Shown: positions 14,416 through 34,321 of the stretch, piece by piece
How the letters are laid out: each line of letters begins with the position of its first letter
Position numbering within the stretch: position 1 is the first letter of the stretch
Source: Chloroflexota bacterium
GTDB lineage: Bacteria; Chloroflexota; Anaerolineae; Anaerolineales; UBA4823
Assembly (NCBI GenBank): GCA_017860725.1
Contig: JAGDMX010000001.1
Location: forward strand, 1 to 35,623
Length of the DNA stretch: 35,623 nt
Direction: 5' to 3'
Notes under the pieces: generated by a model
Told to the model about the DNA's origin: nothing
Seen by the model: the letters and a program-made list of their open reading frames with translations, nothing else
Databases searched by the model: none
Made by a program: the position numbers and the translations under genes

Positions 14416-17400
14416 ATGGACAAGATCAGGCTATCTATCGTCGTAGGTTGTCTATTTGCGTGTGGATTGGTGCTTCTAGCAGCCGGGGCGAGGCTGCAAC
14501 AATTTTCTGCCTTGGCCGCTCCGTCTACCGATGTCAGCGGGTTGATTACTACCAACACGATTTGGTCTCCGGCGGGCAATCCTTATATCGTGACCGGTGA
14601 CGTCACTGTCGAACCCGGCGTGACCCTGGTCATCGAGCCTGGGGTGCAGGTGCGCTTTGACGGTGTTTACGCTTTTAATGTACGTGGCACACTGAACGCT
14701 GTGGGCACACACGAACAGCCGATCGTATTCACCTCCAATAAACCCAGCCCGCTGGCTGGCGACTGGGGCGTGTTGGATATCCGAGCCGACAGTCAGCATA
14801 GCCGGATGGAGCATGTGATGATCGAATATGGCGGTAATAACGGCAAAGCTGGCTGGTACTGTGCCTCTGGAGCCTTGTGCGTCAATACCTCATCTTTTCG
14901 GCTGGAAGCCTCCACCCTGCGCAACAGCGCTACCCGCGCGGTCGTTCTGTCGCAGTCGAGCGCTATCATCTACAACAATACCTTCGACCACGTCACCTGG
15001 GAAGCGATCCGCTTGCATACCTGTGACCTGGCTAAGGGCGAATGCCACCCGCTGATAGTTGGCAACACCTTCACCAATAACCAGTATCCCATCCTGCTGG
15101 ATAACGCCCAGCTCCCGGAGATGAGCGGTAACACTGCCAGCGGCAACCAAGTCAACGGCTTTGTGCTCAGCCCGATGTGCTATTTAAAGGGTAATAATAC
15201 CTTTGTTGCTGGCGATCTGCCTTATGTGGTCGTAGCCTCCGGCTCCTGGTGCCATATCGGAACTTACGGCGTCTCTACTCGCCTCACCATCCAACCTGGA
15301 ACGATCTTCAAGCTGCAGAACACCATCAAGTTTCAGTACGACACGGTCATCACAGCCACCGGGACAGTTGAGCAGCCGATTATCTTTACCTCGCTGAAAG
15401 ATGACAGCGTCGGCGGCGATACCAATAACGACGGTAGCATCACCAGTCCGGCGGGGGAAGATTGGGGTGCAATCTTCCACGAGGGAATCAACGTGAAAGC
15501 CAGCTACCAGCATGTCATCTGGCGCTACGGTGGCGGTACAGCTTTCGGATGGGGACCGTTGGTGGCTGTGCAGGGCGGGGCGAATGTGACTATCCGGGAC
15601 AGCGAGTTAAGCCAGGCTGAGGTAGGAGTCTATACCTATGATACAGCCACCCTGGACTTCCAGAATAACCAGGTCCATCATCTGGTCACATCGGGCGTAG
15701 ATACTTACTCGACCGGTTCCGTTTTGGTGGCAGGTAATCGCTTTACGAATATCACCAATTTTGGCGTGACAGTGCAGAGAGGCGCACCGGTATTGCGCGA
15801 GAACTTCTTCCAGAGCAACAAGACCGGAGTTGAAGTGATCTGCTCAGCGAATCCATGCAGCCCGGTAGTCTCGCCGCACAATCGCTTCATCGGCAGTGGG
15901 CAGACCGGGGTGAATGTCAGGTACCCGGCCAGCGTCTGTGTCGACGGTCGGCGCAACGGCTGGGGCGATGTGAGCGGGCCTCATGACAATTCAACGGTAG
16001 TGGATGCCTGCGGTATGGCCGACAACCCAGGCGGTCTGGGAGCTCCGGTCTCCAATGGGGTCAACTACAATCCCTGGGAAGGCGGTATGGGTCGCCCGGT
16101 GATTTCATCGCCACGCTGCGGGGTGACTGCCCAGAATCAGCCGCTGGTCTACGGCTGGGCACCGGCCGGTGCGCTGGTTTCCTTCTACGACGAGGGCGTG
16201 AAGATCGGCGACACTGTCGCCAATGATGGCGACACCTTCTCCTGGGTGCCGGGTGATCCATTCAGCGATGGACACCATAGCCTGACAGCCATCGCCGAGC
16301 TGGGTGGGCAAACCAGTCTACCGACCCCGATGCTTGTACTCCAGGTGGACAGCAGCCTGCCTTACGACCCCATGGGCGTGCGCATCCGCTACGACCTGCA
16401 TGGCATCCAGTATGTGCAAATGCTGCGCGATGCTCAGGGCTGCTCCAGCCTGGGAACCAGCCTGGAGACGCCGGTATGGGTGCGCCCGGGGACGATCATG
16501 ACCGTCACTGTGCCGGTACGCAGCATGACCACCCTGAGTGATCCGGTACTGCTCTACGATAACCTGGATGCAATATCATCGCCTCATTCTGGTGGGCAGG
16601 CTGCGACGGACTCGTCGGATTGGGAGTTGGCTCCGACACGTGAGGTGCCGGTGCAAAACGACAGCGGTCAGACCATCATCGGCTACCGGGTGGCCGCTCC
16701 TGGTTATTACCCTGGCAACCGCATTTACACCGGCTACGGCCCAGTTGAGAAAATCCCCGGCGGCGATATCCCCGGCGGTATGTCAGGTGTGATTGAAGTC
16801 GAAGGCGTTGCTGACGTAATCCTGGTGACGGACGACGGCGCCCTTCACCGGGTGGATGGCAACCTCGGCGATCCTGGTTTTGGTGGTATCACCGTTCCAG
16901 AGAACAGTAGCCCGGCAAACCTGACAATACATAACAATAGTGGCTCAACTTTATTCCCCGTTTACATAGGTAGAACATCGAGCATCGGAAGCGATTACTA
17001 TGGTGGATCTAACTTGTTTTTGGGGGTAGAGAATGAGCGCAACGAGATGGTCAGCCTGCCGGCCAACACAGATGAAGATACGAGGTATCATGGTCTGGCT
17101 TTAGGTCATGATGGTGGTGAGACGATCTATTACCCGGTGAAGATTTTCATACCGGCAGGAAGATCTGCGGAGACCACCATTGAAAACGGTTACGGAGTGG
17201 TGGATATAACCAATGGCTTTCCGGGGGACATCTGCGATTTTGGTTTGGTGCCTTACGAGGAGCAGCCGGGTGGGACAAGCCACAAACCACTCAACTTGCT
17301 GCAATACCTGGATGCCAGTAATCCGCAGCCCAAGATCCTCGAGGGCGGTCAATTGCCGCGCATCCGCGTCGGCGCCGGTAGGTACTACTGGCAGGCATAT

Positions 17401-18009
17401 TACTGCGATGGCTCACCTGCCGGGCATGGTGAGGTCGTGATTTCCACCGTGCACGATACGAATTTTCCTCAGAATTTCCGGTTGGAATGCCAGGATAAAG
17501 TTCAGATCGGTCCGTATGAATACCCGCTGCAGAAAAAGCCGAAGAACTCGCCAGGTTGGGTCAACACCGGCTTTGACGAATACGAGGCCGCTTTCCCGAT
17601 GTCCCCCGGACCGCTGTCCTTCAAAATCTGTCGGGATGGATATGTGTGTAGTAACTCCATTGGTCAGGTGCTGATCGATCCCGACGGCTATGTCTACGAC
17701 TCCAGCATAAGCCCAAGCGCAGTAATTCAGGGCGCTACGGTAACTTGCAAGATGTACGATGAAGATTACCAGGTGTGGAGCCGCTGGCCGGCCGAGCTTT
17801 TCGAAAGCCAGGTCAACCCCCAGGTGACTCTGGCAGATGGCTACTATGCCTTTTTTGTGCCGCCTGGCCTGTATCGAGTGGAAGCTAGCGCTCCGGGTTA
17901 CACCCCGCATATCAGCCCGAATATCCAGGTAATCAATGAAGTCGTGCACTATAACGTGCCGTTAGTGCCGCTATATCAAAAGATCTACCTGCCGCTGGTC
18001 AACCGTTGA
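14416..18009 (+). CDS. Large secreted protein: signal peptide, right-handed parallel beta-helix (PbH1/NosD-like) repeats, Ig-like region and a C-terminal carboxypeptidase-regulatory-like domain
   Basis: A GGAGGG Shine-Dalgarno sequence lies 5 nt upstream of the start. The signal peptide is MDKIRLSIVVGCLFACGLVLLAAGA. Repeated G-x-rich beta-helix turns are present (IVGNTFTNN, VAGNRFTNITNFGV, RENFFQSNKTGV). The C-terminus has GYYAFFVPPGLYRVEASAPGYTPH and the protein ends IYLPLVNR. Confidence 0.8.
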   Translation: MDKIRLSIVVGCLFACGLVLLAAGARLQQFSALAAPSTDVSGLITTNTIWSPAGNPYIVTGDVTVEPGVTLVIEPGVQVRFDGVYAFNVRGTLNAVGTHEQPIVFTSNKPSPLAGDWGVLDIRADSQHSRMEHVMIEYGGNNGKAGWYCASGALCVNTSSFRLEASTLRNSATRAVVLSQSSAIIYNNTFDHVTWEAIRLHTCDLAKGECHPLIVGNTFTNNQYPILLDNAQLPEMSGNTASGNQVNGFVLSPMCYLKGNNTFVAGDLPYVVVASGSWCHIGTYGVSTRLTIQPGTIFKLQNTIKFQYDTVITATGTVEQPIIFTSLKDDSVGGDTNNDGSITSPAGEDWGAIFHEGINVKASYQHVIWRYGGGTAFGWGPLVAVQGGANVTIRDSELSQAEVGVYTYDTATLDFQNNQVHHLVTSGVDTYSTGSVLVAGNRFTNITNFGVTVQRGAPVLRENFFQSNKTGVEVICSANPCSPVVSPHNRFIGSGQTGVNVRYPASVCVDGRRNGWGDVSGPHDNSTVVDACGMADNPGGLGAPVSNGVNYNPWEGGMGRPVISSPRCGVTAQNQPLVYGWAPAGALVSFYDEGVKIGDTVANDGDTFSWVPGDPFSDGHHSLTAIAELGGQTSLPTPMLVLQVDSSLPYDPMGVRIRYDLHGIQYVQMLRDAQGCSSLGTSLETPVWVRPGTIMTVTVPVRSMTTLSDPVLLYDNLDAISSPHSGGQAATDSSDWELAPTREVPVQNDSGQTIIGYRVAAPGYYPGNRIYTGYGPVEKIPGGDIPGGMSGVIEVEGVADVILVTDDGALHRVDGNLGDPGFGGITVPENSSPANLTIHNNSGSTLFPVYIGRTSSIGSDYYGGSNLFLGVENERNEMVSLPANTDEDTRYHGLALGHDGGETIYYPVKIFIPAGRSAETTIENGYGVVDITNGFPGDICDFGLVPYEEQPGGTSHKPLNLLQYLDASNPQPKILEGGQLPRIRVGAGRYYWQAYYCDGSPAGHGEVVISTVHDTNFPQNFRLECQDKVQIGPYEYPLQKKPKNSPGWVNTGFDEYEAAFPMSPGPLSFKICRDGYVCSNSIGQVLIDPDGYVYDSSISPSAVIQGATVTCKMYDEDYQVWSRWPAELFESQVNPQVTLADGYYAFFVPPGLYRVEASAPGYTPHISPNIQVINEVVHYNVPLVPLYQKIYLPLVNR

Positions 18010-18128: not shown

Positions 18129-19208
18129 TTATAAGAATCCGGCTAACAGGTACAGGATTGCGAAGGCACTGAGGGCAACCAAGATAAACAGCACTGTCAA
18201 CCAGATCCAAAACGGCAGTGTTCTTCCCCCAATCTGCCAGGGACTCGCCAGCAGGCTTCGAACCGACTCGGGCTCGAGCAGGCTTTTCAAAAGCGCATGG
18301 TAGCCGATCTTATCCGGTTGTTCATCTGCCTCCTGGGGCTGCATGGAAGCCGGATCGGAATCCCGTTCGAGTTTGGATAGGGCAGCCTCCATTTCAACCG
18401 CGCCGGAAAACCTGAGTTCGGGATCCTTCTGCAAAGCACGTGTCACAATGTTTGCCAGTCCATCGGGCACCTGTTGGTTGAATTGTTGTGGGGATGGAGC
18501 AGTGTCCATTGCATGCATCCGCACGACGGACCAGGCATCATTGGATTCGAATGGTAGCCGACCGGTAAGCATTTCAAAAATAGTAGCCCCTAAGCTGTAA
18601 ATGTCGGACTGGGGAGTAAGTTTTTTCCCACGCGCCTGTTCGGGTGAAATGTATCCCACCCCCGCAAGCATCACATGGGTTTTAGACAGACCTGACTCGG
18701 AGAGCAGTCTGCTTAACCCAACGTCGGTCACCTTCACCTGCCCATCGGCGGTGAGAAGAATGTTCTGGGGTTTGATTCCTTGATGAACCAATCCTTGCTG
18801 GTGAATAACGTCTAAGGCGACGCAAATCTGGCGAGTGATATACGCGGTAAGGGCCGGGGACAGTAAACCATATTCGCTGATGTATGATCCCAGGTCTGTG
18901 CCATCGACCCATTCCATGATGATGTAATACCGAGTTTGATCGACACCGTAGTCGAGGATGTGTACGAGATTATCATGGGACAGCTCAGCCAGGCGCCGCA
19001 TATGATTACGGAAACGAATGGCAAAGCGCGGGTCAGAATGATATTGGGTATGAAACACCTTGATCGCCACTGGCTGTCCGTTTTCGGGGGGGGTGGCGCG
19101 GTAGACTGAAGCCATGGGACCCCGGCTGATCTCTTCTTGTAGTATGTAGCCGGCGCCAATTTTCGCGCTGCTTTTCGGCTGTGGGTTATTAAGCGTTGTC
19201 GAGACCAT
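18129..19208 (-). CDS. Tail-anchored Ser/Thr-kinase-fold protein with degenerate catalytic motifs (predicted pseudokinase)
   Basis: The kinase fold is recognisable: VAIKVF, YISPEQ and DIYSLGATIFEMLTGRLPF. However, the G-loop is ISRGPMASVY, HRD is HQG (18777-18785), DFG is DVG (18717-18725) and the alpha-C Glu position reads RFRNH. There is a single TM helix at the extreme C-terminus (LPFWIWLTVLFILVALSAFAILYLLAGFL). Confidence 0.85.
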   Translation of the reverse strand: MVSTTLNNPQPKSSAKIGAGYILQEEISRGPMASVYRATPPENGQPVAIKVFHTQYHSDPRFAIRFRNHMRRLAELSHDNLVHILDYGVDQTRYYIIMEWVDGTDLGSYISEYGLLSPALTAYITRQICVALDVIHQQGLVHQGIKPQNILLTADGQVKVTDVGLSRLLSESGLSKTHVMLAGVGYISPEQARGKKLTPQSDIYSLGATIFEMLTGRLPFESNDAWSVVRMHAMDTAPSPQQFNQQVPDGLANIVTRALQKDPELRFSGAVEMEAALSKLERDSDPASMQPQEADEQPDKIGYHALLKSLLEPESVRSLLASPWQIGGRTLPFWIWLTVLFILVALSAFAILYLLAGFL

Positions 19209-19225
19209 GAAATTCTTGCCAGTTC

Positions 19226-21004
19226 TTACGGGTAAGGATTCCCGGATGTAGAATCAGTAGTCCCGGTTATTGGGACGATCAATTCTTGCCCTTCGGAGAT
19301 ACTATTCGGGTTGAGGATCTGGTTGGCATCCATCAATACCTGAATGGTGGTGTCAAAGCGCAATGCAATCTCTAGGAGAGTCTCGCCCGGGCCGACCACG
19401 TAGGTTTGAAATTCCATGCCGCGATAGACGTGCGGCAAAAATACTTTCGACTCAGTCCCGACGCCGTTGGGAGAGATGCTTACAGGAGCTTTATCCCAGC
19501 GGGAATAATTTAGGACGGTGAGCTGTTCGTTAATCCAATCCTCCTGGCGCACATAGCCATGGCTATCCAGCCATCCTTTTACAGACCAGTTCGGATCAAC
19601 AGTCTCTATATCCCGGACGACCAGCCACACATAGGGGACGCCTTTGAATAGAGCATTCAGGTCCCCAACTTCTTTTGGTTTGGGGTGGAGCAGTATTTCA
19701 TCGCCCGGATAGCCTTGCGTCTCAACCGATGCTTCGTAATCCGAGTAATAATATTGGAATGGCAATTCGGCATACCCGGGGAGGAAAATCACCAGCCCTC
19801 CAGGCTTGTCCTTAACCTCTTGCGCAACATAGGCTGCGGTAGCGCGCCAGTCTTCTTTCTCTTCGTTGATGGCGTTATAACCGATTGAGACGAAATTCAT
19901 AGCCACTAAAGGCAGTAAAAATGCCAGCACTGCTTTTGAGCTGCGAAACTGCCCGACGGTGCCGGCGACGAGCAGATAATAACCCAGGGAGGCTGCAATT
20001 AAATTGCGGCTGAGGAAGATTGGCTGCCGCAAGCTGACCAACAATGAAAAGACCAGGGGGATGAAAAGCCATAGCGAAGTGAGGCGGAGTTGCCACCCTT
20101 TCCTGGGGATGATATACGCCAGGATAAAGATCGTCGCCATGTAAACCAGGCTGAGCTCGATATAAGGGAAGTTAAAATTATGGAAATCCAGGAGCGTTTC
20201 TAATACCGTTTGGAAGGAGGGTGGTTGAAGCCAGAAATCTTCCGTCACCCGTCGAGTCTGGGTCCAGAAAAATGGTAGCCACGGCAGGTATAGCAGCCCG
20301 ATTGCCGCCATGCTGATCAGCCAGCCGGTCAAACGCTCTTTATACCGCCGGAGAGACAGCAAGAAGAAGATCGAGATCGTAGCAACATACCAGAATGCAC
20401 CATTGTCGGTATATAATGCCAGCGCTGTGGTGAGTACAAACCAGATCCAATCCCTGCGATTCCCAAAACGTAGTGCCCGAAAAAAGAAATAAGCCGAGAT
20501 CAGGATAAAGCAGGTCAGCATGGCGTACATGCGCGTTTCCTGTGCGTACCAGATGTGGAAGGGTGAAAAAGCCAGCACAGCCGCGGCGATCAAGCCAATC
20601 CGTTCATCCTCGAAGATATTCTTCCCTACCAAGTAGATCAACACAATCGATGCAACGCTGAATAAAGCAGACAGCAGTCGCACCTGTGCTTCACCATCAC
20701 CCAGGACCAGCCACATTTTTAACAGCAGATAGTAAAGGGGTGGATGGGTATCGGTTTGGACAACCATCCGCAGGATGTCCGCCAGGCTGTGCTGGCTGAT
20801 CGCGATACTAAAGGCTTCGTCCAGCCATATGCTTTTTTCCGTCAATTGGTATAGTCGCAGACTGGCCCCGATCACCACCAGGATGGCAAGCATCTTTTGT
20901 TGCAGGGTCAGTTGTGCCAACCACTTTTGGGCGCGTAATAAAATCGGGGATTTTGCATACTCACTTCTATGAACCGATAGATCCTTTTTGGTGTCTTCGC
21001 TCAT
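19226..21004 (-). CDS. GT-C fold glycosyltransferase (PMT_2 / ArnT-like, GT39/GT83-type) fused to a C-terminal LysM domain
   Basis: The protein has about 11 TM helices. The first-loop acidic motif is SIWLDEAF, with THPPLYYLLL nearby. The C-terminal soluble region ends in LysM (YVVGPGETLLEIALRFDTTIQVLMDANQILNPNSISEGQELIVP). Confidence 0.85.
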   Translation of the reverse strand: MSEDTKKDLSVHRSEYAKSPILLRAQKWLAQLTLQQKMLAILVVIGASLRLYQLTEKSIWLDEAFSIAISQHSLADILRMVVQTDTHPPLYYLLLKMWLVLGDGEAQVRLLSALFSVASIVLIYLVGKNIFEDERIGLIAAAVLAFSPFHIWYAQETRMYAMLTCFILISAYFFFRALRFGNRRDWIWFVLTTALALYTDNGAFWYVATISIFFLLSLRRYKERLTGWLISMAAIGLLYLPWLPFFWTQTRRVTEDFWLQPPSFQTVLETLLDFHNFNFPYIELSLVYMATIFILAYIIPRKGWQLRLTSLWLFIPLVFSLLVSLRQPIFLSRNLIAASLGYYLLVAGTVGQFRSSKAVLAFLLPLVAMNFVSIGYNAINEEKEDWRATAAYVAQEVKDKPGGLVIFLPGYAELPFQYYYSDYEASVETQGYPGDEILLHPKPKEVGDLNALFKGVPYVWLVVRDIETVDPNWSVKGWLDSHGYVRQEDWINEQLTVLNYSRWDKAPVSISPNGVGTESKVFLPHVYRGMEFQTYVVGPGETLLEIALRFDTTIQVLMDANQILNPNSISEGQELIVPITGTTDSTSGNPYP

Positions 21005-21007
21005 TAC

Positions 21008-22846
21008 TTAATCCATCGATACCTGCCCTGGAGATTCGGTCTTGGGTTGCTTGACCGGCAAGGCTTCGAGCAATGCAAACCGCAGGGCGGATAGGTAGAT
21101 GATGGCATGCCATGCGAGCAGAATCGCCAGAAGCACACCCTCCCGGTTCGTACGGAGGTTGAGCACCAGAGGGATTGCCGCGACCAGGAGGATTCCCAGA
21201 ATGGTCTCCCAAGAAGTGGCTTTCAAGGCACGCGTGAGGTCGGTTTCGAGGCCATATTTTGGAGTTCGTAGAAAAGTCCCCTTATCGTTCCATAACGCGG
21301 ATATACACGCCCGGGCTACTGTCAAGCTGAGTGCTAACATGGCCATAAACGCCCCCAGTCCGGAACGCCAGGAGCATCCCGTGGTCAGGTGCAGCGCCCA
21401 GGCGACGCGCAAAACCCCGGTGAGGATCGAGATCACAGGGACAAACAGGATCCACTCAGCCAGTTGCCGGATCGGTAACTGCCAGTCGTAGGCAAAAGCA
21501 GCGGTGGTAAGGAGCAAAAAACCAGTAAATATCAATACCAACAAGTCGTTGAACCAGCCCAATAAACCCATCAGGTAGCGAAGACGCTGTTGAAAAGAGA
21601 GTTTTTCAACCTGGTCTGATCTGCTCCAGGGGAGCAACCTCCAGCCATAGCGTTTAAGAATCTGCATCCCTCCGAAAGCCCAACGAAAACGCTGTTTCTT
21701 GGTGGCATCGAATGTCGTGGGGAGCAGACCATGCCCGAAAGCCTGGTTAATGTATACACTCTGGTAGCCTTTTTGTAGCATACGTAAGCTGGCTTCTGCA
21801 TCTTCGGTAATGCACCACTCATCCCAGCCACCAATGCGCTCGAGAACCCGCTTGCGAATGAGCCCCATCGTGCCACAGAAGATGATGGCATTCTGCTCGT
21901 TGCGGGAGCGCATGCTGATCTCGAAGAAGAAACGCTGCGCTAATGCGCTGAAGTGAGCAAACAAGTTTTCATCACGGTTGTAAAAGGATTGCGGCGTCTG
22001 GACGAAAGCCACCCGCGGGTTGCTGAAGTAAGGTACGGTCTCGCGCAGAAAGCTGGGAGTAACCAGGTAGTCGGAATCGACCACCGCGACGACTTCGACA
22101 TCTGGGGCAGTCTGGGTCAGGGCAAAATTCAGCGCGCCAGATTTAAAACCGGGGTAGTCCTGCAGGTGAAATACTTTGATGCCATTCTGATAGCAGAAAT
22201 TCACTACCGGGCGCCAGAGCACATCGTCTGTGGTGTTGTCGTCTACCATGATCACTTCGTAGGTGGGATAGTCGAGTTTGCGGAGAGCAGTTAGGGTCTT
22301 AATCACCATATCAGGCGGTTCGGCATGGGCTGGAACGTGGACGGAGACTTTAGGCCAGTAATCGTTCGGGCCAGTGAACGGGGGAAAGTAACGCTGCCAG
22401 CGAAGACGGGCGACTACATCCAGCACTTCGAAAGCAAAATATAGAGTCAGGAGGACGACGACCACCTCTGCAGAGAACAATACCAGAGAACCGATAACCA
22501 CATGTCGCGCCAGGTTTCCAAAAAGGATCACCCACAAAATTCGCCCCAGGAACACAAGTTGAACTACGCCAAAAGCAGCCAGGAAGGCGTGCCCGCGGCT
22601 GTTCCAATCCGGCAGGCGGTTCCACAAGAAAACGCAAAGTAATGCATATCCCAGGGTAAATATAGCAGTCAGCCCCAGCTCGCGCCGCCAGACAAAATAA
22701 ATCAGTGCAGAGACTACTAGAACGATGGCGAGATGAAGATTGCCGGTAAACCTGCTTTCACCTTTGGGACGATAACCGGTCAGGATCAGCCAGGCGAAGC
22801 TGGCTAAGGTAGCAGTGATCGCGTAATAAAAAAATTCTTCGATCAT
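21008..22846 (-). CDS. Processive family-2 glycosyltransferase (cellulose/curdlan/chitin-synthase-like beta-glycan synthase)
   Basis: The catalytic motifs are EVIMVDDNTTD, AVVDSDY (DxD), CITEDAEASL (TED) and KKQRFRWAFGG (QxxRW). Multiple TM helices lie both N- and C-terminal to the catalytic domain. I see no PilZ-like C-terminal domain. Confidence 0.9.
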   Translation of the reverse strand: MIEEFFYYAITATLASFAWLILTGYRPKGESRFTGNLHLAIVLVVSALIYFVWRRELGLTAIFTLGYALLCVFLWNRLPDWNSRGHAFLAAFGVVQLVFLGRILWVILFGNLARHVVIGSLVLFSAEVVVVLLTLYFAFEVLDVVARLRWQRYFPPFTGPNDYWPKVSVHVPAHAEPPDMVIKTLTALRKLDYPTYEVIMVDDNTTDDVLWRPVVNFCYQNGIKVFHLQDYPGFKSGALNFALTQTAPDVEVVAVVDSDYLVTPSFLRETVPYFSNPRVAFVQTPQSFYNRDENLFAHFSALAQRFFFEISMRSRNEQNAIIFCGTMGLIRKRVLERIGGWDEWCITEDAEASLRMLQKGYQSVYINQAFGHGLLPTTFDATKKQRFRWAFGGMQILKRYGWRLLPWSRSDQVEKLSFQQRLRYLMGLLGWFNDLLVLIFTGFLLLTTAAFAYDWQLPIRQLAEWILFVPVISILTGVLRVAWALHLTTGCSWRSGLGAFMAMLALSLTVARACISALWNDKGTFLRTPKYGLETDLTRALKATSWETILGILLVAAIPLVLNLRTNREGVLLAILLAWHAIIYLSALRFALLEALPVKQPKTESPGQVSMD

Positions 22847-22852
22847 GCTGGG

Positions 22853-24775
22853 TTAATGATTTCTACGCCTCAGCCAGAACACAGCAGCCAGGCAGCCGAT
22901 GGCGAAAGCGGCAAAGACAGCCAGGGCGGTAACTTCCCACATTTTCCAAGCTGGACGAGTAGGAGACTTCGGATCGATGGTAGGAGGGGTCGCGGTCGAT
23001 GAAGCCTGTATGGGATCTGGAGATAATTTTTCTGTGGTCGTACCTTGTGGCGTAGCTGTCAGAGCCGGTACGGTATTGACCGGGGTCACAGAAGACGGGG
23101 TGATGGTTGCAGCAAGAGGGCCCAATTGGGTCGAACCGGGCTCACTACCCCAAATAACCTGACCGTTCATGGCGATAGTCACCCGTTCCCATTCCTGGTA
23201 TTCACCGCTTGGCGAAAAGCTATAGTCATCTGCTTGTTGAAATTCAGTCCAATCCGTGCGGTTGAAGCGAATCTTAATCTCGCCAGTATCTTCACCGGGG
23301 AGCAGTGGCTCCAGCCCGGTTTGAAAATGGAGGCGTAAATAACGGAAGCCTCCTGGTAATATGTTGAACTCTCCGGAGATATTTGCGCAGCCAATCTCGG
23401 CCCAATCACAATGGAAAGTATAGGCCAGATCGTCTTCGTCGCTGAACCAGTAATAGAGCTCGACGGCATCCAAAGGTACAGGCGTTGAGCCTGCATTGAC
23501 AAGGATCAATTCCGGCTTGGAATCGAGTGTGTTTTCCGCCGGATTGGCATTTCGATAGAGTACGCGTAGCGTTCCAGAGATTGGCGGTGTCGCGGAGGCA
23601 ATCCGGGAGGCTGGTTCGGTCCCAATTTGTTCAATCCCAATCAGCGGAAACTGGTAACCGGAGAGCAGCTCTCGCTTGTTCGGGTCAACGCTTTGCCAGT
23701 CATCTAACAGGATGCCCCCGGTGTCCCCGGAGTTAGGATTGAGGGTCCAATAGACATAGCTGACGTTGTTCTCGCGCAGATAAGACACCAATGCCCGCTG
23801 CCAGATACCTTCCCGATCATCACCCACCGAGCGCCCGCCAAACTCACCCACGATCACCGGAGCGATATTTCCCTTTTGCAGGTAACCCCAGTGGCTGTCC
23901 CAAATTTCCGGCATGTTTTCGGGAAAGTCAGGTTCTGCAAACCAGGGTTGAGGATAAACACCCGGCCCATACACATGTGTGCTGTAAACCAAACGTCCTG
24001 GCACGTTAAGGTGCACGGGATACTCGTTGGCGCCCAGCAGGTTGCCACCCCACCAGTACCAGTCGCCTTCAAACTCCTGTACGCCTTGAACGATGATCAA
24101 GACATTGGGGTTAACCTCAAGGATGGCATTGCCGGCACGCTCGGCTGCCAGGCTCCAATCTGTGGCAGGGTCTCCGCTGCCCCATGTCGCCCGCCCATGC
24201 GGCTCGTTATGTAAATCCATGCCGATCACCGTATCATCCCAGGAGTAACGTTCGGCCAGCATGACCCAATCATTGATCCAGCGCTCCTCGCTGTATTGAG
24301 ATGTGTACCACAGTTCGGACTGCGAATGGCTGTCAGGTCGATGGCGATCCAGGATAACTTTCAAGCCCCGCTCGCCAGCTTCAGCGATAATCGTATCCAT
24401 AATTTCGAGGCCGTTTAATCCCTCCAAATCCGGATTGAGATCATAATTGATCCCATTTGGGATGCTGGCAGGGTCAAACAGCTGATTACTGTAGGGCAGG
24501 CGTATCGTATTAAAGCCCAATTCCACGATCTGATCTAGGATACTTTCCAGGTTACGCGCCCATAGGCCGTGTGGGGCATAGCTTTCGGTCTCCAGGCCGA
24601 ACCAATTGATCCCGGTCAAGATCACCTGGTTGCTGCTTGAATCCAAAATTCGACTGCCATCGGTATGCAAATAATTAGGGGTTTGTGCATAGGCGTGCCA
24701 ATAAATGCCAAGGCTACCAAATATGCTCCCGATCAGGAGTGTTAGATATAATAATTTCCGATAAAATTGACCCAT
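22853..24775 (-). CDS. GH5 endoglucanase with a CBM3-like module, an N-terminal signal/anchor and a C-terminal TM anchor
   Basis: GH5 catalytic motifs are MDLHNEPH (acid/base) and VIVGEFGG (nucleophile). The CBM3-like module reads LRVLYRNANPAENTLDSKPELILVNAGSTPVPLDAVELYYWFS...TFHCDWAEIG. A P/T-rich linker is followed by WEVTALAVFAAFAIGCLAAVFWLRRRNH. Confidence 0.85.
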   Translation of the reverse strand: MGQFYRKLLYLTLLIGSIFGSLGIYWHAYAQTPNYLHTDGSRILDSSSNQVILTGINWFGLETESYAPHGLWARNLESILDQIVELGFNTIRLPYSNQLFDPASIPNGINYDLNPDLEGLNGLEIMDTIIAEAGERGLKVILDRHRPDSHSQSELWYTSQYSEERWINDWVMLAERYSWDDTVIGMDLHNEPHGRATWGSGDPATDWSLAAERAGNAILEVNPNVLIIVQGVQEFEGDWYWWGGNLLGANEYPVHLNVPGRLVYSTHVYGPGVYPQPWFAEPDFPENMPEIWDSHWGYLQKGNIAPVIVGEFGGRSVGDDREGIWQRALVSYLRENNVSYVYWTLNPNSGDTGGILLDDWQSVDPNKRELLSGYQFPLIGIEQIGTEPASRIASATPPISGTLRVLYRNANPAENTLDSKPELILVNAGSTPVPLDAVELYYWFSDEDDLAYTFHCDWAEIGCANISGEFNILPGGFRYLRLHFQTGLEPLLPGEDTGEIKIRFNRTDWTEFQQADDYSFSPSGEYQEWERVTIAMNGQVIWGSEPGSTQLGPLAATITPSSVTPVNTVPALTATPQGTTTEKLSPDPIQASSTATPPTIDPKSPTRPAWKMWEVTALAVFAAFAIGCLAAVFWLRRRNH

Positions 24776-24810: not shown

Positions 24811-25305
24811 ATGGAGAATACATTGGTCCGGATCACCATTACAGATCACGATCAAACCGTCAGCTTTCTTTCCAATCGAGAAACCCTTCTGAGGCTCGTC
24901 GCGGGATGCTCGGTCAATCCAGCCAGCCTGGAGGAATTACTCATCGCAACAGATATATACCAACGTGGCACGGCTGCTACGCTCATGGCTGATTTGATGG
25001 AATTTGACAAAGCCCTTCGCATGAAAGGGGCTGATTTTATCCATGCTGCCATTGCCCAGGCCAGAACCAGGGAAGAGCCATTGGCACTGGCGTTCCAGGT
25101 TATCGACGATATTACCACAGAGGAAGCTTTTACTATGCGGGGCTGTGATTTGGTAGTAATCGATCTGGCCCAGCAGGTTATCCAACCATCTGCGGGTATA
25201 GTTATAACTTCTGAGGGCGAAATCAATGTTGACACCGATAAAAAGCTTATCAAACCAACAGTGACCTATATATTGCCCCAGGAGTGGACTGTTCAGGCAC
25301 TGTAA
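24811..25305 (+). CDS. Hypothetical soluble protein (164 aa), no recognisable motif
   Basis: This is an intact ORF on the strand opposite its neighbours. Its start lies only 35 nt from the divergent GH5 start. I recognise no family. Confidence 0.45.
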   Translation: MENTLVRITITDHDQTVSFLSNRETLLRLVAGCSVNPASLEELLIATDIYQRGTAATLMADLMEFDKALRMKGADFIHAAIAQARTREEPLALAFQVIDDITTEEAFTMRGCDLVVIDLAQQVIQPSAGIVITSEGEINVDTDKKLIKPTVTYILPQEWTVQAL

Positions 25306-25316
25306 TTTGCAAGTAA

Positions 25317-26852
25317 CTATTCGTGCCCACTTAGAATAAAATCGCACCTATGGTCAGCAATACGGCAGGAGTGAATGATTTGGCCATCCTGGACGACCTG
25401 AAAGAATGCTCCATCGTCATCGGGAATCCAAAAATGCCATGCTTTGTCGATAGCGACCAGCCAACCCTGGGACATACCGCAGGAGGATGGCTTCGCGGGG
25501 GCTGTCCCGGGGATTAGTTGATTGTCATTGGCTCCGGGACGCAACAATTGAAAGCAGTCTCCTGCAGGAAGTGTATTCAGCGCATTAGGGTTAACCTGCC
25601 CCCACTGTTCAACTGCGAAGGTGGCGGTAACTGTTCCCTGGTCTGATAAGCGCTGAAAAGTGACGCTTGATAAATCGATCGGCAAGTTAGACACATTCAC
25701 CACCGCGATGGCTGATTCATCATAGAAAAGTTGAATGTTTGAAGGTGAGAACAATTCCTGACTACGGGCTGCGGCAGCAGTAAATGCGGCAAATAAAATC
25801 GCGATCCAGGTTACCAGGCTCAGAAAATATAGATAACGTTCTTCGCGGCGCAAGTTGTAGGTAGGTTTTGCGGGTTTCGCAGGTAAGATCACGAATTGAG
25901 GCAAGATCGGTTTGCGAATCTGTGTCTCCTGCAAGGTGGATCCATAAGGCGGTGTAGATTCTTGCGGATCCGGTAGGACCTCCAAGCGCTCCGGAGCTGA
26001 TGCGTCGGGCTTTTGAATTTCACCTTTCTGAGTTTGGTCGCCTGTCTGATACAGGGCTTTTTGGAAAGCATCTACAAACTCCCCTGCGGTTGGAAAGCGT
26101 TCCTGAGGATTTTTTGCGAGGGCCTGCTGGAGGATTGGATCAAGGGTGGCCGGTAATTCAAGGTTGAGTGCGCCGAGAGATGGGGGTGAGTCGTGAATAT
26201 GTTGGAGAAGGACTGACATTGGCTGCTCCCCTTCAAAGGGTAGCCTGCCAGATAGCATTTCAAAAGTAATAACCCCAAGGGAGTAAATGTCGCTGCGAGT
26301 GTCAATCGTTGCTTCCCTGAGCGCCTGTTCTGGGCTCATATAGGCCGGCGTTCCGCTTGCCAGGTTGCTCTGCCAGGTCGATTCAGCAAATAAGGCAATG
26401 CCGAAGTCCGCCAGGTATGCATTGCCATCCTGATCGAACAAGATGTTACTGGTTTTCAAGTCACGGTGAATAATACCCTGGCTGTGAGCGTAATCGAGAG
26501 CGCTGGCGATCCGAGCTAATACCTTAGCGGTTTGTTCAGGGGAAAATGGACCATGCCGCAAATGGTCGGCCAGCGAACCGCCGGACATGTACTGCATGAC
26601 GATATAGGGTTTGCCTCTTTCCACTCCCGATTCATATAACGGGACAATCGCTTCTTGCTCCAGAGCGGCAATTAACTGCGCTTCCTGTTCAAAACGAGAT
26701 CGATATCCCAGATCGTTAAGGTACTCTGAAGGCAGCATCTTGATGGCAACATGCTGGCGATTTAGAGGGTCATATGCCAGGTACACCCGTGACATTGCCC
26801 CCACACCAATCTCGGCCAATATTTCATAGCCGTGTATTTTTTCAACCAGCAT
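25317..26852 (-). CDS. Transmembrane Ser/Thr protein kinase (canonical motifs) with an uncharacterised extracytoplasmic domain
   Basis: The canonical motifs are IGVGAMSRVY, VAIKML, IIHRDLKTSNILF, ADFGIA and YMSPEQ. A TM helix (YLYFLSLVTWIAILFAAFTAAAA) is followed by a roughly 150-aa C-terminal domain of unknown type. Confidence 0.9.
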   Translation of the reverse strand: MLVEKIHGYEILAEIGVGAMSRVYLAYDPLNRQHVAIKMLPSEYLNDLGYRSRFEQEAQLIAALEQEAIVPLYESGVERGKPYIVMQYMSGGSLADHLRHGPFSPEQTAKVLARIASALDYAHSQGIIHRDLKTSNILFDQDGNAYLADFGIALFAESTWQSNLASGTPAYMSPEQALREATIDTRSDIYSLGVITFEMLSGRLPFEGEQPMSVLLQHIHDSPPSLGALNLELPATLDPILQQALAKNPQERFPTAGEFVDAFQKALYQTGDQTQKGEIQKPDASAPERLEVLPDPQESTPPYGSTLQETQIRKPILPQFVILPAKPAKPTYNLRREERYLYFLSLVTWIAILFAAFTAAAARSQELFSPSNIQLFYDESAIAVVNVSNLPIDLSSVTFQRLSDQGTVTATFAVEQWGQVNPNALNTLPAGDCFQLLRPGANDNQLIPGTAPAKPSSCGMSQGWLVAIDKAWHFWIPDDDGAFFQVVQDGQIIHSCRIADHRCDFILSGHE

Positions 26853-26872: not shown

Positions 26873-27649
26873 TTATTTATCTTTGCCCTTGGGCTTATTT
26901 TTATTCGCCTCGCTGATTACTTTACCTTTATTAACTTTGTCTTTATTCTTGTTGTTATTGTCTTTTACCTCTTCAGAGCGTCCGTTTGAAGCGGGGATTT
27001 CGGTAGCCCATGAGTTGGCATTGCCTGCAGGTGTAGAGACGAGTGTTTCGGTGATCATCGTCACCGGTGGAGCAGGGAATTTATCGAAAGCCACGATCTT
27101 CAAGGCCATCCATCTGTAATCTTCCAGAGCGGTAAAGGTGGTCAGCAGGATCTGACCGAGTTCCAGGTTATCCCCCACCTCGGTTCGCTGGTTCACCACC
27201 AGCGAGTGCCCGCCGATTTGCCACAGGCTTTCCTGGATCATCTCCAGAGGGCCATTGAAGGTGAAGTAGGTTTTATCTTCTTGGGTCAGTTGTATCCGAT
27301 CTGCGAGCCAGGTGCTATCTCGCAGAATGCGACCTGTCAAGACGACAAAATCACCCACATGCAGCTCGCTGGCGAGCTGGGTATGAGCCGCCACCCGAAT
27401 GGGGACATTGCCAATGATCCACACTTCCTCTGAGCCGCCCGTGATCACTCCCTGCCCGATAAATTGATAATCGAAGGGCATATTCGCTACGTCTTGTGGC
27501 CCGTTGATCGCCGATAAACCGCGCGAGGCGGCCCGCGTGGCATCCCCGGAGCCAATAACCAAACCGACCACGGTGATCACTAGCAGCAACCCTGCCAGGA
27601 GCATGCCGAGCTTCAATCCCTTGCTTTGCCTAATCGTCGTCATCTTCAT
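26873..27649 (-). CDS. DUF5666-like membrane-anchored protein, paralog B (Lys-rich tail)
   Basis: It is about 80% identical to paralog A over roughly 165 aa (GPQDVANMP.DYQFIGQG.ITGGSEEVWIIGNVPIRVAA.TQLASELHVGDFVVLTGRIL...WQIGGHSLVV). The start was placed at MKMTTIRQ (27649; 27643 is also possible) by alignment with the paralog N-terminus. The ORF-track start at 27718 would overlap paralog A by 89 nt. Confidence 0.75.
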   Translation of the reverse strand: MKMTTIRQSKGLKLGMLLAGLLLVITVVGLVIGSGDATRAASRGLSAINGPQDVANMPFDYQFIGQGVITGGSEEVWIIGNVPIRVAAHTQLASELHVGDFVVLTGRILRDSTWLADRIQLTQEDKTYFTFNGPLEMIQESLWQIGGHSLVVNQRTEVGDNLELGQILLTTFTALEDYRWMALKIVAFDKFPAPPVTMITETLVSTPAGNANSWATEIPASNGRSEEVKDNNNKNKDKVNKGKVISEANKNKPKGKDK

Positions 27650-28322
27650 CTTTTTCGTGGTCTCGATTCGCACTGTTCCCGTTATTACTCTTTTCTTTTT
27701 CCTTCTGGTCGAGATCAACCCAGTTTACTTTTACCTTGTCTGCGGTAGCTGTGTTGTTCGTAATTTTTGGAGCGGCCACTCCAAATTCAACAGGCACCGG
27801 AGTGGGAATAACCTCCTCCGCGAGGATTATCACCGGTGGAGCAGGGAACTCATCGAAGGCCAAGATCTTCATGGCGATCCAGGTGCTATCTTCCGGGGCG
27901 GTAAAGGTGGTCAGCAGGATCTGACCGAGCTCCAGTTTATCCCCCACCTCGGTTTGCTGCTCCACCACCAGCGAGTGCCCGCCGATTTGCCACAGGCTTT
28001 CCTGGATCATCTCCAGGGGACCGTTGAAAGTGAAATAGGTTTCATCTTCTTGGGTCAGTTGTATCCGATCTGCAAGCCAGGTCTTATCCTGCAGAATACG
28101 ACCCGTCAGCACAACGAAATCACCTACATGCAGCTCGCTGGCGAGTTGAGTTTGAGCCGCCACCCGAATGGGGACATTGCCAATGATCCACACTTCCTCC
28201 GAGCCGCCCGTTATCTGCCCCTGTCCAATAAATTGATAATCGTAAGGCATATTTGCTACATCTTGCGGCCCATGGATCGCCGGTAACCCACTCCGTGCAG
28301 CTTGACTGCTATCCCCGGATCC
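27062..28322 (-). repeat. Tandem gene duplication: ~493-bp units at 27062-27554 and 27831-28322, offset 769 bp
   Basis: By eye the two units are about 85-88% identical. They contain long perfectly identical tracts, for example a 54-nt tract CACCACCAGCGAGTGCCCGCCGATTTGCCACAGGCTTTCCTGGATCATCTCCAG and a 44-nt tract GCCGCCACCCGAATGGGGACATTGCCAATGATCCACACTTCCTC. Confidence 0.85.
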
Positions 28323-28457
28323 GGGAAGCAGGTAGAGCACACTAATCATTAACACCGGTGCGACCAGTACCACGCCAAGCTTGACCCATTTCTGGGGTAG
28401 AACTCTGCCCAAGAGCCTCAAAAGAACTGTGCGTAAACGCAGGAAATAATCTTGCAT
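27630..28457 (-). CDS. DUF5666-like membrane-anchored protein, paralog A (Asp/Glu-rich tail)
   Basis: The N-terminal anchor is VKLGVVLVAPVLMISVLYLL. Two OB-like repeats follow, as in paralog B. The protein ends HEKDEDDDD. Confidence 0.75.
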   Translation of the reverse strand: MQDYFLRLRTVLLRLLGRVLPQKWVKLGVVLVAPVLMISVLYLLPGSGDSSQAARSGLPAIHGPQDVANMPYDYQFIGQGQITGGSEEVWIIGNVPIRVAAQTQLASELHVGDFVVLTGRILQDKTWLADRIQLTQEDETYFTFNGPLEMIQESLWQIGGHSLVVEQQTEVGDKLELGQILLTTFTAPEDSTWIAMKILAFDEFPAPPVIILAEEVIPTPVPVEFGVAAPKITNNTATADKVKVNWVDLDQKEKEKSNNGNSANRDHEKDEDDDD

Positions 28458-29893: not shown

Positions 29894-30889
29894 CTAGAAT
29901 ACGCGAATAGCGATCTCGGCTGGGGCTGCCAGCAGATCCTCTAACTCAGGATCAAGCTTTACCAGGGTAAGTGAGAAGCCAGCCATTTCCAGAGAGGTGC
30001 AGTACTCACCGATATAGTTGCGCTTAATCTTCATACCGCGCTTCTCCACCTGCTCGTGAGCATAACCGTACAGCAGGTAGAGCTCGGAAATCGGCGTGCC
30101 GCCCATACCATTAATCATCAAGGCGACTTCATCGCCGGCCTTGTACGGGATATCGCTGGCGACGGCTTCCAACAGCTCATCGACGATTTCGTTAGCAGGT
30201 GCCATCTTCACGCGCTTGCGTCCTGGTTCGCCATGGATACCGATGCCCATTTCCATCTCATCTTCGGCCAATGTAAAGATCGGGGTGCCTTTCGCAGGTG
30301 GGGTGCAGCCAGTGAGTGCCATACCCATGGTGCGTGTCACAGCTACAACCCGATTGCCCAGGGCTTCCAACTCTTCCAGGCTGGCGCCGCGCTCGGCAGC
30401 TGCACCGGTAGCCTTCATGACGAAGAAGTTCCCTGCCACACCACGCCGACCAATCGTCCAGGTTGAGTCTTTTACCGCAACATCGTCATTGATGGTGACG
30501 GTACGGACTTCGATGCCTTCAGCTTCGGCCATTTCACGTCCCATGTTGAAGGACATTGTGTCGCCCGTATAGTTGTTCAGCAAGTGTAATACCCCTTTTG
30601 GCGATGCAACCAGCTTGGTTGTCTGATAGACGAAGTCGGCGGGCGGTGCAGCAAAGACATTACCGGGACAGGCTGCGTCTAGCATACCGCGCCCGACTGC
30701 CATCACGTGAGCCGGTTCGTGGCCCGATCCTGACCCTTGCATGATCGATACCTTATTCGAGATGGGTATATCGGCGCGCATAATCAGGTTATATTCGGGG
30801 ATGTACTTAAGGGTTTTCGGGTTTGCTAGGGCGATGCCCTTGAGCATTTCTGGTACAAAATTCTTGGGGTCATTGACAAATTTCTTCAT
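29894..30889 (-). CDS. dhaK: Dihydroxyacetone kinase, DhaK (substrate-binding) subunit
   Basis: MKKFVNDPKNFVPEMLKGIALANP, SGSGHEPAH and the substrate-binding His in MGIGIHGEPG. At 331 aa the length is typical of DhaK. Confidence 0.9.
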   Translation of the reverse strand: MKKFVNDPKNFVPEMLKGIALANPKTLKYIPEYNLIMRADIPISNKVSIMQGSGSGHEPAHVMAVGRGMLDAACPGNVFAAPPADFVYQTTKLVASPKGVLHLLNNYTGDTMSFNMGREMAEAEGIEVRTVTINDDVAVKDSTWTIGRRGVAGNFFVMKATGAAAERGASLEELEALGNRVVAVTRTMGMALTGCTPPAKGTPIFTLAEDEMEMGIGIHGEPGRKRVKMAPANEIVDELLEAVASDIPYKAGDEVALMINGMGGTPISELYLLYGYAHEQVEKRGMKIKRNYIGEYCTSLEMAGFSLTLVKLDPELEDLLAAPAEIAIRVF

Positions 30890-30921
30890 GTTCGGGTCCT
30901 TTCGATTGGGGAGAATATGGG

Positions 30922-31545: not shown

Positions 31546-31563
31546 TAATGTGCTCCTAAGGGT

Positions 31564-33188: not shown

Positions 33189-33339
33189 AACAATTTCCTT
33201 CCTGCCGGATTTGCCGGCCTATGCTTGATAGCAGTCACATGCTCGATTTAGCCACATATTTATTTAGAGAGTGGCAATGGCTAGCGATGATCGGTTAATT
33301 TTTTTGGTTTTCCTCCAATCTTCGTTAATATTGGGCATT

Positions 33340-34068: not shown

Positions 34069-34131
34069 AAAGCACTGGCCTTATCAGTATGCTCCGAATA
34101 TAAAGATTTCGAGACTTTGCTTAAATTCGCT

Positions 34132-34161
34132 GTATAGACGATTAATCGACGGTGTGTAGAC
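34132..34161. promoter_or_regulatory. Two candidate HutC-type operator half-sites (GTnTAnAC)
   Basis: GTATAGAC (34132-34139) and GTGTAGAC (34154-34161) lie in the divergent gntR/transaldolase intergenic region. Both fit the GT-N-TA-N-AC pattern reported for HutC-subfamily regulators. Confidence 0.35.
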
Positions 34162-34234
34162 CTCTTAATCCTAATTTATTTTTTGTGTTATGTCAAGAAA
34201 TCCGCGACTATTCATCTAATTCTTGCGTGGATAC

Positions 34235-34282: not shown

Positions 34283-34321
34283 AGCTAACATCTAGATGCC
34301 AAGTCTGTTTCTGCCTGATAG

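Follow-up and report, generated by a model that had tools for sequence, protein, structure and literature searches.

The DNA analyzed is a 35,623-nucleotide stretch of a Chloroflexota genome (Anaerolineales, UBA4823; positions 1 to 35,623 of contig JAGDMX010000001.1, assembly GCA_017860725.1), which is referred to throughout as the window. It carries a cluster of six genes predicted to make and remodel an envelope polysaccharide (Table 1). Four minus-strand open reading frames (ORFs) encode a glycoside hydrolase family 5 (GH5) glucanase with a family 3 carbohydrate-binding module (CBM3), a processive glycosyltransferase family 2 (GT2) synthase, a GT-C fold glycosyltransferase with a LysM domain, and a tail-anchored kinase-fold protein. 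An earlier reading of the letters alone (the first-pass annotation) described these four ORFs as one operon, and the gaps of 6, 3, and 17 nt that it gave between positions 24775 and 18129 agree exactly with the ORF list. Its four domain assignments were upheld when the window ORFs of at least 150 aa were scanned against Pfam (GH5 plus CBM_3; GT2; PMT_2 plus LysM; Pkinase). The unit itself had to be enlarged from four genes to six; a gene for a 164-aa product, named o164, and an intact receptor-type Ser/Thr kinase were overlooked and are conserved alike. The minus-strand genes, four or more of them, are probably co-transcribed. None of the scanned ORFs encodes BcsB, BcsC, BcsQ, PilZ, or GGDEF, as the first-pass annotation had stated for the Bcs partners and PilZ, and a BcsB-like protein is likewise missing from the Pfam-labeled genes of related loci.

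Table 1. Genes of the predicted polysaccharide cluster and its upstream neighbors, in window positions.
Feature	Position	Strand	Size and evidence
GH5-CBM3 glucanase	22853..24775	-	640 aa; ORF list and Pfam
Processive GT2 synthase	21008..22846	-	612 aa; ORF list and Pfam
GT-C with LysM	19226..21004	-	592 aa; ORF list and Pfam
Tail-anchored kinase-fold protein, predicted pseudokinase	18129..19208	-	359 aa; ORF list and Pfam
o164	24811..25305	+	164 aa; conserved family, AlphaFold2 model
Receptor-type Hanks Ser/Thr kinase	25317..26852	-	Pfam Pkinase E 1.5e-51; motifs; transmembrane segment
Two transmembrane-anchored DUF5666 paralogs	26873-27718 and 27630-28457	-	Pfam E 3e-8 and 7e-8

Synteny was followed outward from the GT2 gene by tblastn and ORF clustering on the contigs of its relatives, and the related loci carry names of the form L001. 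Independent genomes and metagenomes show the same gene order, with proteins that are 48-82% identical and with different flanking genes. The series glucanase, GT2, GT-C, kinase-like protein is found in L001, L002, L007, and L084; L003 has the same order up to a GT-C at the contig end, and the short contig L004 holds GT2 and GT-C only. Loss of synteny, which the first-pass annotation named as refuting its reading, is not seen, the order being kept wherever the contigs are long enough. The o164 gene lies upstream in L001, L002, L003, and L007, and the receptor kinase lies upstream in L001 and L003; L002 begins within the apparent C-terminal domain of that kinase. Two further loci that were found from o164 (L081 and L082) have the same six genes. 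A metagenome survey with an o164 profile, scored by tblastn, returned 31 loci, of which L088 is the window itself and L094 and L095 look identical to L001. Counting only loci whose sequence extends to the side in question, the GH5-CBM3 gene is head-to-head with o164 in 26/26, GT2 follows GH5 in 16/16, GT-C follows GT2 in 8/8, and a kinase-like gene follows GT-C in 6/6. The receptor kinase is tail-to-tail with o164 in all evaluable loci except one. Among the listed clusters, 29 GT-C clusters equal a GT2 cluster in longest-contig size and were taken to share contigs with it. Successive genes overlap start to stop by 1-4 nt in the orthologous loci, which suggests translational coupling.

More distant loci separate the fixed part of the cluster from the variable part. 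Two loci from the Chloroflexia (L005 and L006, GT2 47-48% identical) are ordered GT-C without LysM, o164-like, GT2, kinase-like, and GH8. L021 (GT2 40%) encodes o164-like, GT2, and kinase-like proteins in that order, and L085 (GT2 50%) an o164-like protein, a PASTA-kinase, and GT2. L083 (GT2 70%) has GT2, GT-C, a kinase-like gene, and an intact kinase; its o164 is encoded on the other strand, and no glucanase is adjacent. The invariant core is GT2 with a Hanks-fold protein and o164; GT-C occurs often, and the glucanase varies. The GH8 of L005 is closest to BcsZ-type endo-1,4-glucanases, and the glucanase is swapped non-orthologously, each time for an enzyme that is of β-1,4 type by sequence. 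A sister GT2 clade in Chloroflexota (L008, L009, and L011, GT2 41-42% identical) has a different GH5 with CBM3 directly after GT2 and has neither kinases nor o164. Two smaller features were seen in these loci. The PASTA-domain kinase of L085 (L085:2881-4650) overlaps GT2 by 4 nt and is another tie to peptidoglycan sensing, and short ORFs upstream in L008, L009, and L011 cluster with the GT2 N terminus and perhaps reflect a split gene or a frameshift.

The glucanase opens with a hydrophobic segment that closes with AYA followed by Q, a signal peptidase-like site by hydropathy. The catalytic domain (residues ~34-370) is followed by the CBM3 (~400-547), a Pro/Thr/Ser-rich linker, and a transmembrane segment at residues 615-633. 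Pfam assigns the catalytic domain to Cellulase/GH5 (PF00150, E 4e-54, 184 bits against a cut-off of 23.5) and the binding module to CBM_3 (E 1e-11, 45.5 bits against a cut-off of 22.4), and the module also matches solved CBM3 structures with E values of 1e-24 to 1e-29. The closest PDB match of the GH5 domain is the Acidothermus endocellulase E1 (1ece, E 1e-129), and both catalytic glutamate motifs, HNEPH (NEP) and GEFG, align with those of E1. The catalytic domain also closely resembles other characterized GH5 endo-β-1,4-glucanases, and the protein is predicted to be a subfamily 1-like endo-β-1,4-glucanase tethered outside the membrane. The C-terminal transmembrane segment and a CBM_3 score above the Pfam cut-off agree with the membrane-tethered GH5 with CBM3 of the first-pass annotation. 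That annotation also took a GH5 in the place of the usual GH8 as a departure from bcs cellulose operons. The clostridial CcsZ provides a precedent: it is a GH5 endo-β-1,4-glucanase, not a GH8, and is encoded beside a cellulose synthase (PMC7710045).

The GT2 protein is composed of about five transmembrane helices, a cytosolic GT domain, and about five further transmembrane helices (hydropathy). Pfam GT2 families match with E 9e-31, and the match to Cellulose_synt is weak. The DDN, DSD, TED, and QRFRW motifs are all present and align with C. sphaeroides BcsA and with NdvB, so that alignment and hydropathy together agree with the full processive motif set and flanking transmembrane bundles of the first reading. 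There is no Pfam match to PilZ at E ≤ 0.01, and the protein stops 24 residues past the last predicted transmembrane helix; at the other end there is no Pfam match to GH17, and residues 1-135 form a transmembrane bundle. BcsA (4hg6) is the best solved-structure match with E 1e-27. The scores against the NCBIfam models are 155.6 and 116.7 bits for BcsA/CelA (TIGR03030, cut-off 699.1; NF008558, cut-off 992), 91.9 bits for PgaC (cut-off 422.3), and 34.5 bits for NodC (cut-off 550). All are well below the equivalog cut-offs, and the GT2 is an equivalog of none of the three, in agreement with the non-Bcs reading of the first-pass annotation.

Among named proteins, the GT2 is closest to Pseudomonas aeruginosa NdvB, which is 38.7% identical over residues 116-607 (80% of the length) and scores 298 bits in blastp. 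BcsA genes reach 152 bits at most and PgaC genes 66-80 bits by tblastn. NdvB types are GH17-GT2 fusions that are proposed to make cyclic β-1,3-glucans (PMC10237404). The proteobacterial relatives that were retrieved are 870-940 aa long and have an extra N-terminal domain (a weak GH17 match in L060; NdvB annotation); the simple ORF caller overlooked GT2 in many high-GC proteobacterial loci, and these were used through tblastn only. The acceptor-site segment of the window protein, IIFCGTMGL, contains FCG as in the FFCGS of BcsA, whereas the GH17-fused NdvB types have (E/Q)HG. The putative gating loop, FLRTPK, retains the Phe, Thr, and Lys of the BcsA FxVTxK motif with Val replaced by Arg. In a neighbor-joining tree without bootstrap values, all kinase- and o164-linked GT2s, the one in the window included, form one clade that is apart from the GH17-fused NdvB clade; a second GT2 clade from Chloroflexota, Nitrospirota, and Dormibacterota is separate, and BcsA is a distant outgroup. 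By these comparisons the GT2 is an intact processive synthase of the NdvB/BcsA superfamily and an equivalog of neither NdvB nor BcsA. Elsewhere in the wider GT2 family, proteins of 790-810 aa have a C-terminal SnoaL-like domain (L012) or SH3_3 domain (L019) where BcsA has PilZ.

The product of the GT2 is most probably β-1,4-linked and cellulose-like. This assignment is made because two unrelated families of endo-β-1,4-glucanase, GH5_1 with CBM3 and BcsZ-like GH8, were recruited beside this GT2 clade, because a different GH5 with CBM3 adjoins the sister GT2 clade, and because the acceptor-site FCG matches BcsA. NdvB is nearer to the synthase than BcsA is, and the term cellulose-like therefore rests on the glucanase partners and not on the synthase. 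The non-Bcs, cellulose-like β-glucan of the first-pass annotation is thus retained in part: a β-1,4 linkage is plausible through the GH5 and GH8 partners, but the synthase itself is nearest NdvB.

The GT-C enzyme matches PMT_2 (E 2e-17, 64.4 bits against a cut-off of 26.1) and ends in a LysM domain at residues 535-578 (E 3e-10, 40.3 bits against a Pfam cut-off of 20.9). The LysM matches LysM structures in the PDB with E values of 1e-9 to 4e-20, chitin- and peptidoglycan-binding proteins among them. No other part of the sequence has a match in the PDB, and the rest of the protein was placed by a fold search. An AlphaFold2 (AF2) model with a predicted local distance difference test score (pLDDT) of 82 and a predicted template modeling score (pTM) of 0.77 was compared with solved structures using Foldseek. 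The best matches are to ArnT (5ezm and 5f15; TM-score 0.55/0.60, probability 1.0), followed by the STT3/AglB/PglB oligosaccharyltransferases and Pmt4. The WLDE sequence in loop 1 is conserved across 34 homologs, in which Trp60, Leu61, and Glu63 are invariant and Asp62 nearly so, and homologs of the GT-C carry the NCBI label 'glycosyltransferase family 39'. Because of the ArnT-like fold, the GT-C is predicted to depend on polyprenyl-phosphate sugars as donors and to have its active site facing outward and its C-terminal domain outside the cytoplasm. It shares the PMT_2 family, the ArnT-like model, and the conserved loop-1 acidic motif with ArnT and PMT enzymes (GT83/GT39), but is set apart from them by its C-terminal LysM and its fixed place right after a processive GT2. 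Neither a GT39 with a LysM nor a GT-C fixed after a processive GT2 was found described in the literature searched.

The kinase-fold protein at the end of the operon has a kinase-like domain at residues 20-280 (Pfam Pkinase, E 9e-47) and a transmembrane segment at residues 337-355 that ends four residues before the C terminus (hydropathy). HRD is changed to HQG, the Gly-rich loop reads SRGPMA, the αC Glu is replaced by His, and DFG is changed to DVG. The VAIK Lys, the catalytic-loop Asn (KPQN), and the Asp of DxG are kept, and with the Lys, the Asn, and DVG in place nucleotide binding is possible for this predicted pseudokinase. The first-pass annotation spoke of dead catalytic motifs. This is correct for the HRD Asp, the Gly-rich loop, and the αC Glu, which are gone, but not for the three retained residues, and some orthologs keep HRD. 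The comparison was extended to the downstream kinase-like proteins of 14 further distinct loci, which with the window makes 15. The HRD Asp is absent from 10/15, where Gly, Asn, Ala, or Val replaces it: HQG in the window and L100, HRG in L001, L083, and L107, HQN in L081, HLN in L082 and L021, HQA in L084, and HRV in L006. The L099 protein keeps HRD but lacks the VAIK Lys and the Asn of the catalytic loop. Because the catalytic losses vary by lineage and yet fold, tail anchor, and gene position are all preserved, the downstream proteins bear the signature of a pseudokinase family that is degenerate more than fully dead.

The receptor kinase has a complete set of motifs (GVGAMS, VAIK, Glu, HRD, Asn, and DFG). 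Its kinase domain (residues 1-270) is followed by a transmembrane segment at residues 343-361 and an extracellular region of ~150 aa that contains Cys and has no Pfam match. The extracellular region is a candidate sensor domain. The upstream kinases of the related loci are canonical, L084 excepted. In the extracellular domain (window 25317-25769) the Cys are conserved, and the start of the L002 contig encodes the same domain. A pairing of this kind has a parallel in Mycobacterium tuberculosis, in which the PknB, MviN pseudokinase, and FhaA proteins form a system where a receptor kinase acts ahead of a pseudokinase that governs the synthesis of the wall (PMC12599244, citing Gee et al. 2012). 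Neither Chloroflexota nor glycosyltransferases appear in this review of bacterial pseudokinase families.

The o164 gene is squeezed between the glucanase and the receptor kinase. Its start is 35 nt from the GH5 start (head-to-head) and its end is 11 nt from the receptor kinase stop (tail-to-tail). In other loci the head-to-head genes overlap or are separated by ~11-70 nt, and 2-12 nt lie between the tail-to-tail genes (including L001, L082, and L094-L118). Gaps this tight cannot accommodate a pair of conventional divergent promoters. Either each promoter lies within the coding region of a neighbor, or transcription of the kinase gene continues, antisense to o164, into the GH5 operon. Antisense read-through or transcriptional interference may thus be part of the arrangement.

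The o164 protein has 73 homologs, all labeled 'hypothetical' and without a Pfam domain, and every one with a named taxon belongs to the Anaerolineales or the Chloroflexota. A profile search found 134 members of the family among 1.84 billion representative proteins. The AF2 model of o164 has a pLDDT of 93.8 and a pTM of 0.89. A Foldseek search of the PDB with this model gave no fold at E ≤ 0.001 and a best TM-score < 0.2, the o164 profile found nothing better than E 0.27 among PDB sequences, and the only match in Pfam was a sub-threshold one to NanE at E 0.06; these three null results leave o164 without a function based on homology. The gene is nevertheless a genuine one, for a small soluble protein of a conserved family that is confined to this type of cluster. 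Thr9 and Ser18 of o164 are invariant and are candidate phosphorylation sites. Two proteins join o164 to a kinase fold. Residues 1-158 of P0343 are an o164 domain and residues 179-426 a degenerate kinase domain (LLHGNLK), and P0380 is a second, truncated o164-kinase fusion. On the strength of P0343, which is a Rosetta-stone fusion, o164 is a probable partner of the pseudokinase.

The reading that we favor, and hold with moderate confidence as a whole and with less for each proposed step by itself, is that the six genes are a Chloroflexota-specific module for synthase-dependent production of an envelope polysaccharide. The GT2 would polymerize UDP-glucose and thread the β-glucan through its own channel, and the anchored GH5-CBM3, in the manner of BcsZ, CcsZ, and KORRIGAN, would act at the outer face to trim or release the chains as they emerge. 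The GT-C, positioned at the peptidoglycan layer by its LysM, would draw on a polyprenyl-phosphate sugar and either decorate the polymer or link it, or a protein associated with it, at that layer. A role at the peptidoglycan is proposed because the LysM here and the PASTA domain on the L085 kinase both point there. The receptor kinase would sense an envelope cue and act on or through the cytosolic pair of pseudokinase and o164, which would dock at the membrane beside the synthase. Ser/Thr phospho-signaling would then set synthase activity in place of a PilZ/c-di-GMP switch. The c-di-GMP independence and the scaffolding by the pseudokinase that the first-pass annotation put forward are likewise proposals.

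Several observations weigh against this picture or loosen parts of it. As for the polymer, the nearest named relative of the synthase, NdvB, is assigned to β-1,3-glucan synthesis, the gating loop FLRTPK is nearer to the NdvB FFRTPK than to the BcsA FxVTxK (FEVTAK), the neighbor-joining tree that separates the clades carries no bootstrap values, and linkage is not readable from sequence at 30-40% identity. The accessory enzymes are not constant, the GH5 being absent from L083, L021, and L085 and the LysM from the GT-C of L083, L005, and L006. The window ORFs scanned encode no GtrB/DPM1-type enzyme for the lipid-linked donor of the GT-C. The physical or phospho-signaling link of the kinases and o164 to the synthase is a proposed one; a trans-acting receptor for c-di-GMP could serve instead, and o164 itself could be one. 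The kinase-like proteins of L002, L007, L114, and L005 have an intact HRD, and some of them may be active. Promoter and terminator consensus counts between positions 17800 and 27000 are equal to or below those of shuffled sequence and are uninformative on operon structure.

Four other explanations were considered, and the first concerns only the polymer. With the same architecture and regulation, the product could be β-1,3-linked, as in curdlan or NdvB glucans, or of mixed linkage, and the GH5 and GH8 enzymes would act on that glucan. The GT2 is indeed closest to NdvB (298 bits versus 152 bits for BcsA) and has the FxRTPK loop common to the NdvB clade, and some GH5 and GH8 enzymes cut mixed-linkage glucans. 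However, the window GH5 is near strict endo-β-1,4-glucanases (E1, E 1e-129) and carries a CBM3 of the cellulose-binding kind, the Chloroflexia partner is a BcsZ-like GH8, the β-1,3-specific GH17 of NdvB is absent, the acceptor residues are FCG as in BcsA, and the GT2 clade is separate from that of NdvB. A β-1,3 or mixed-linkage product is judged unlikely. A polymer that contains N-acetylglucosamine (GlcNAc) and resembles chitin or poly-GlcNAc (PNAG) would suit the LysM, as these modules bind GlcNAc-containing glycans, and the weak matches to the PgaC and NodC models. Those scores are far under the ones for NdvB and BcsA, both partner hydrolases are of the glucanase type, the binding module is a CBM3, and several orthologous GT-Cs do without a LysM, which in bacteria is explained most simply as a peptidoglycan anchor. 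Such a polymer is very improbable.

The remaining explanations would break up the cluster. The glucanase might be a nutritional surface cellulase whose linker is O-glycosylated by the GT39-like GT-C while the GT2 makes an unrelated glycan. The family 39 name of the GT-C homologs, a model that matches Pmt4 as well as ArnT, the long Pro/Thr/Ser-rich linker before the transmembrane segment of the GH5, and the comparable Ser/Thr/Pro/Ala-rich linker after the N-terminal anchor of the Chloroflexia GH8 would all fit such an enzyme. Yet the GT-C of L083 adjoins GT2 where there is no adjacent glucanase, the glucanase changes family and still stays beside the synthase, and the 6-nt gap, with 4-nt overlaps in orthologs, binds GH5 to GT2. 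Endoglucanases are moreover standard in cellulose synthase operons (BcsZ; CcsZ, PMC7710045), and a purely nutritional role is given little credence. Least credible of all is that the kinases belong to an anti-phage defense system like PD-T4-6 and are adjacent by chance. Both kinase-fold proteins score 260-280 bits against the PADLOC PD-T4-6 and mad6 models, but these models represent Hanks-kinase domains in general, PADLOC has no match for the other four proteins, the downstream protein lacks the catalytic Asp, and the kinases and o164 follow one GT2 clade through several rearrangements. The defense reading was rejected on genomic context, the PADLOC scores being generic kinase similarity.

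The favored polysaccharide module has points in common with several described systems. Like Bcs operons, it combines a processive GT2 (D, D, D, QxxRW) with a transmembrane channel and FCG residues, and an endo-β-1,4-glucanase alongside. It differs from them in that the BcsA cut-offs are unmet, the window is without PilZ and BcsB, BcsC, or BcsQ, the loop is FLRTPK and not FxVTxK, and a GH5_1-CBM3 takes the place of GH8 in company with the GT-C, pseudokinase, o164, and receptor kinase. The CslA-GlxA-CslZ system of Streptomyces also has a PilZ-less cellulose synthase-like GT2, in a filamentous monoderm, with an endoglucanase that is not a GH8 and a wall-associated β-glycan; it differs in its copper radical oxidase GlxA and its GH6 and is not known to include a GT-C, pseudokinase, or o164. 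NdvB is the closest named GT2 and shares the FxRTPK loop, the absence of PilZ, and the pairing of a synthase with a glucan hydrolase. The window GT2 differs from NdvB in having an N-terminal transmembrane bundle and no GH17, FCG and not (E/Q)HG, a separate clade, and hydrolases of the β-1,4 type. NdvB is also a genomic orphan (among the Pseudomonas 'Orphan' BcsA-like proteins, PMC10237404), whereas the window GT2 belongs to a six-gene module. The clostridial ccsZABHI locus, a cellulose synthase locus of the Gram-positive type, resembles the cluster in that its own hydrolase is a GH5 endo-β-1,4-glucanase and not a GH8. As described, however, it has acetylation proteins and a BcsA homolog and lacks a GT-C, any kinase or pseudokinase, an o164, and a CBM3 (PMC7710045). 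The likeness to PknB-MviN-FhaA lies in a membrane-attached degenerate Hanks fold beside an envelope-polymer machine and downstream of an active receptor kinase, a position that for the window protein is proposed. In MviN the pseudokinase and the lipid II flippase are parts of one protein, and the pseudokinase recruits a protein with an FHA domain (PMC12599244). The window pseudokinase is instead a separate tail-anchored protein beside a GT2; there is no FHA protein, and the candidate partner is the o164 domain.

The family of each part is known, and so is the location of a GH5 beside a cellulose synthase (PMC7710045). Literature searches on Chloroflexota cellulose synthases, on pseudokinases with cellulose synthases, and on GT39 with LysM found no description of the cluster. 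The combination of a PilZ-less NdvB/BcsA-like synthase with a GT-C-LysM, a pseudokinase, a receptor kinase, and o164 is apparently new in that it was not found described.

Synthase-dependent secretion of cellulose, PNAG, alginate, and curdlan is understood mainly from Proteobacteria, in which c-di-GMP and PilZ-type receptors gate the synthase. The cluster offers a conserved alternative from a phylum that is large, forms filaments, and is mostly uncultured. Here a synthase of the same kind is genetically tied to three unusual partners: a pair of Hanks kinase and pseudokinase, a small protein without a known fold, and a GT-C enzyme with a peptidoglycan-binding module. If the proposed roles hold, it offers a testable case of Ser/Thr phospho-control of a bacterial processive glycan synthase, functions for the orphan o164 family and for a bacterial pseudokinase family, and a lead on the envelope or sheath composition of Anaerolineae filaments, which are abundant in sludge, sediments, and soils. 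The way in which GH5_1-CBM3 and GH8 replace each other around an unchanging core of synthase and regulators is also a clean natural experiment for inferring polymer chemistry from gene context. A bolder proposal, which we regard as speculative and somewhat doubtful, is that this Chloroflexota synthase clade swapped PilZ/c-di-GMP for a switch in which a receptor kinase acts through a membrane-tethered pseudokinase bound to the new-fold o164, with the GT-C/LysM coupling the glucan to peptidoglycan. If true, it would be a bacterial counterpart of the kinase-regulated cellulose synthesis of plants and would define a new family of synthase regulators.

The two DUF5666 ORFs are located upstream of the receptor kinase in the same direction and are also present in L001, L081, and many metagenome loci. 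The pair is possibly associated with the cluster, and its membership is uncertain. The two ORFs overlap by 89 nt, and the start of the downstream one was probably called too early. The downstream kinase-like protein of L084 has a weak DUF5666 match of its own.

On the other side, a plus-strand gene at window 14416-18009 converges with the cluster and encodes a 1197-aa secreted or anchored right-handed β-helix protein (Beta_helix, NosD, and CarboxypepD_reg). It was considered as a polysaccharide lyase or adhesin partner and excluded, as it is syntenic in no related locus. Scans of the whole window for tRNA genes and Rfam families gave no match. A 391-aa ORF at 9605-10780 (minus strand) has no Pfam match and is located between methyltransferase and Exo_endo_phos genes. 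The 995-aa protein encoded at 296-3283 (minus strand) combines an adenylate/guanylate cyclase domain with an NB-ARC/STAND NTPase and TPR repeats and is unrelated to the cluster. A sugar-phosphate block at 29894-35599 is composed of genes for Dak1, Dak2, a HAD hydrolase, a class II fructose-bisphosphate aldolase, and a GntR/UTRA regulator, together with a divergent transaldolase-like gene.

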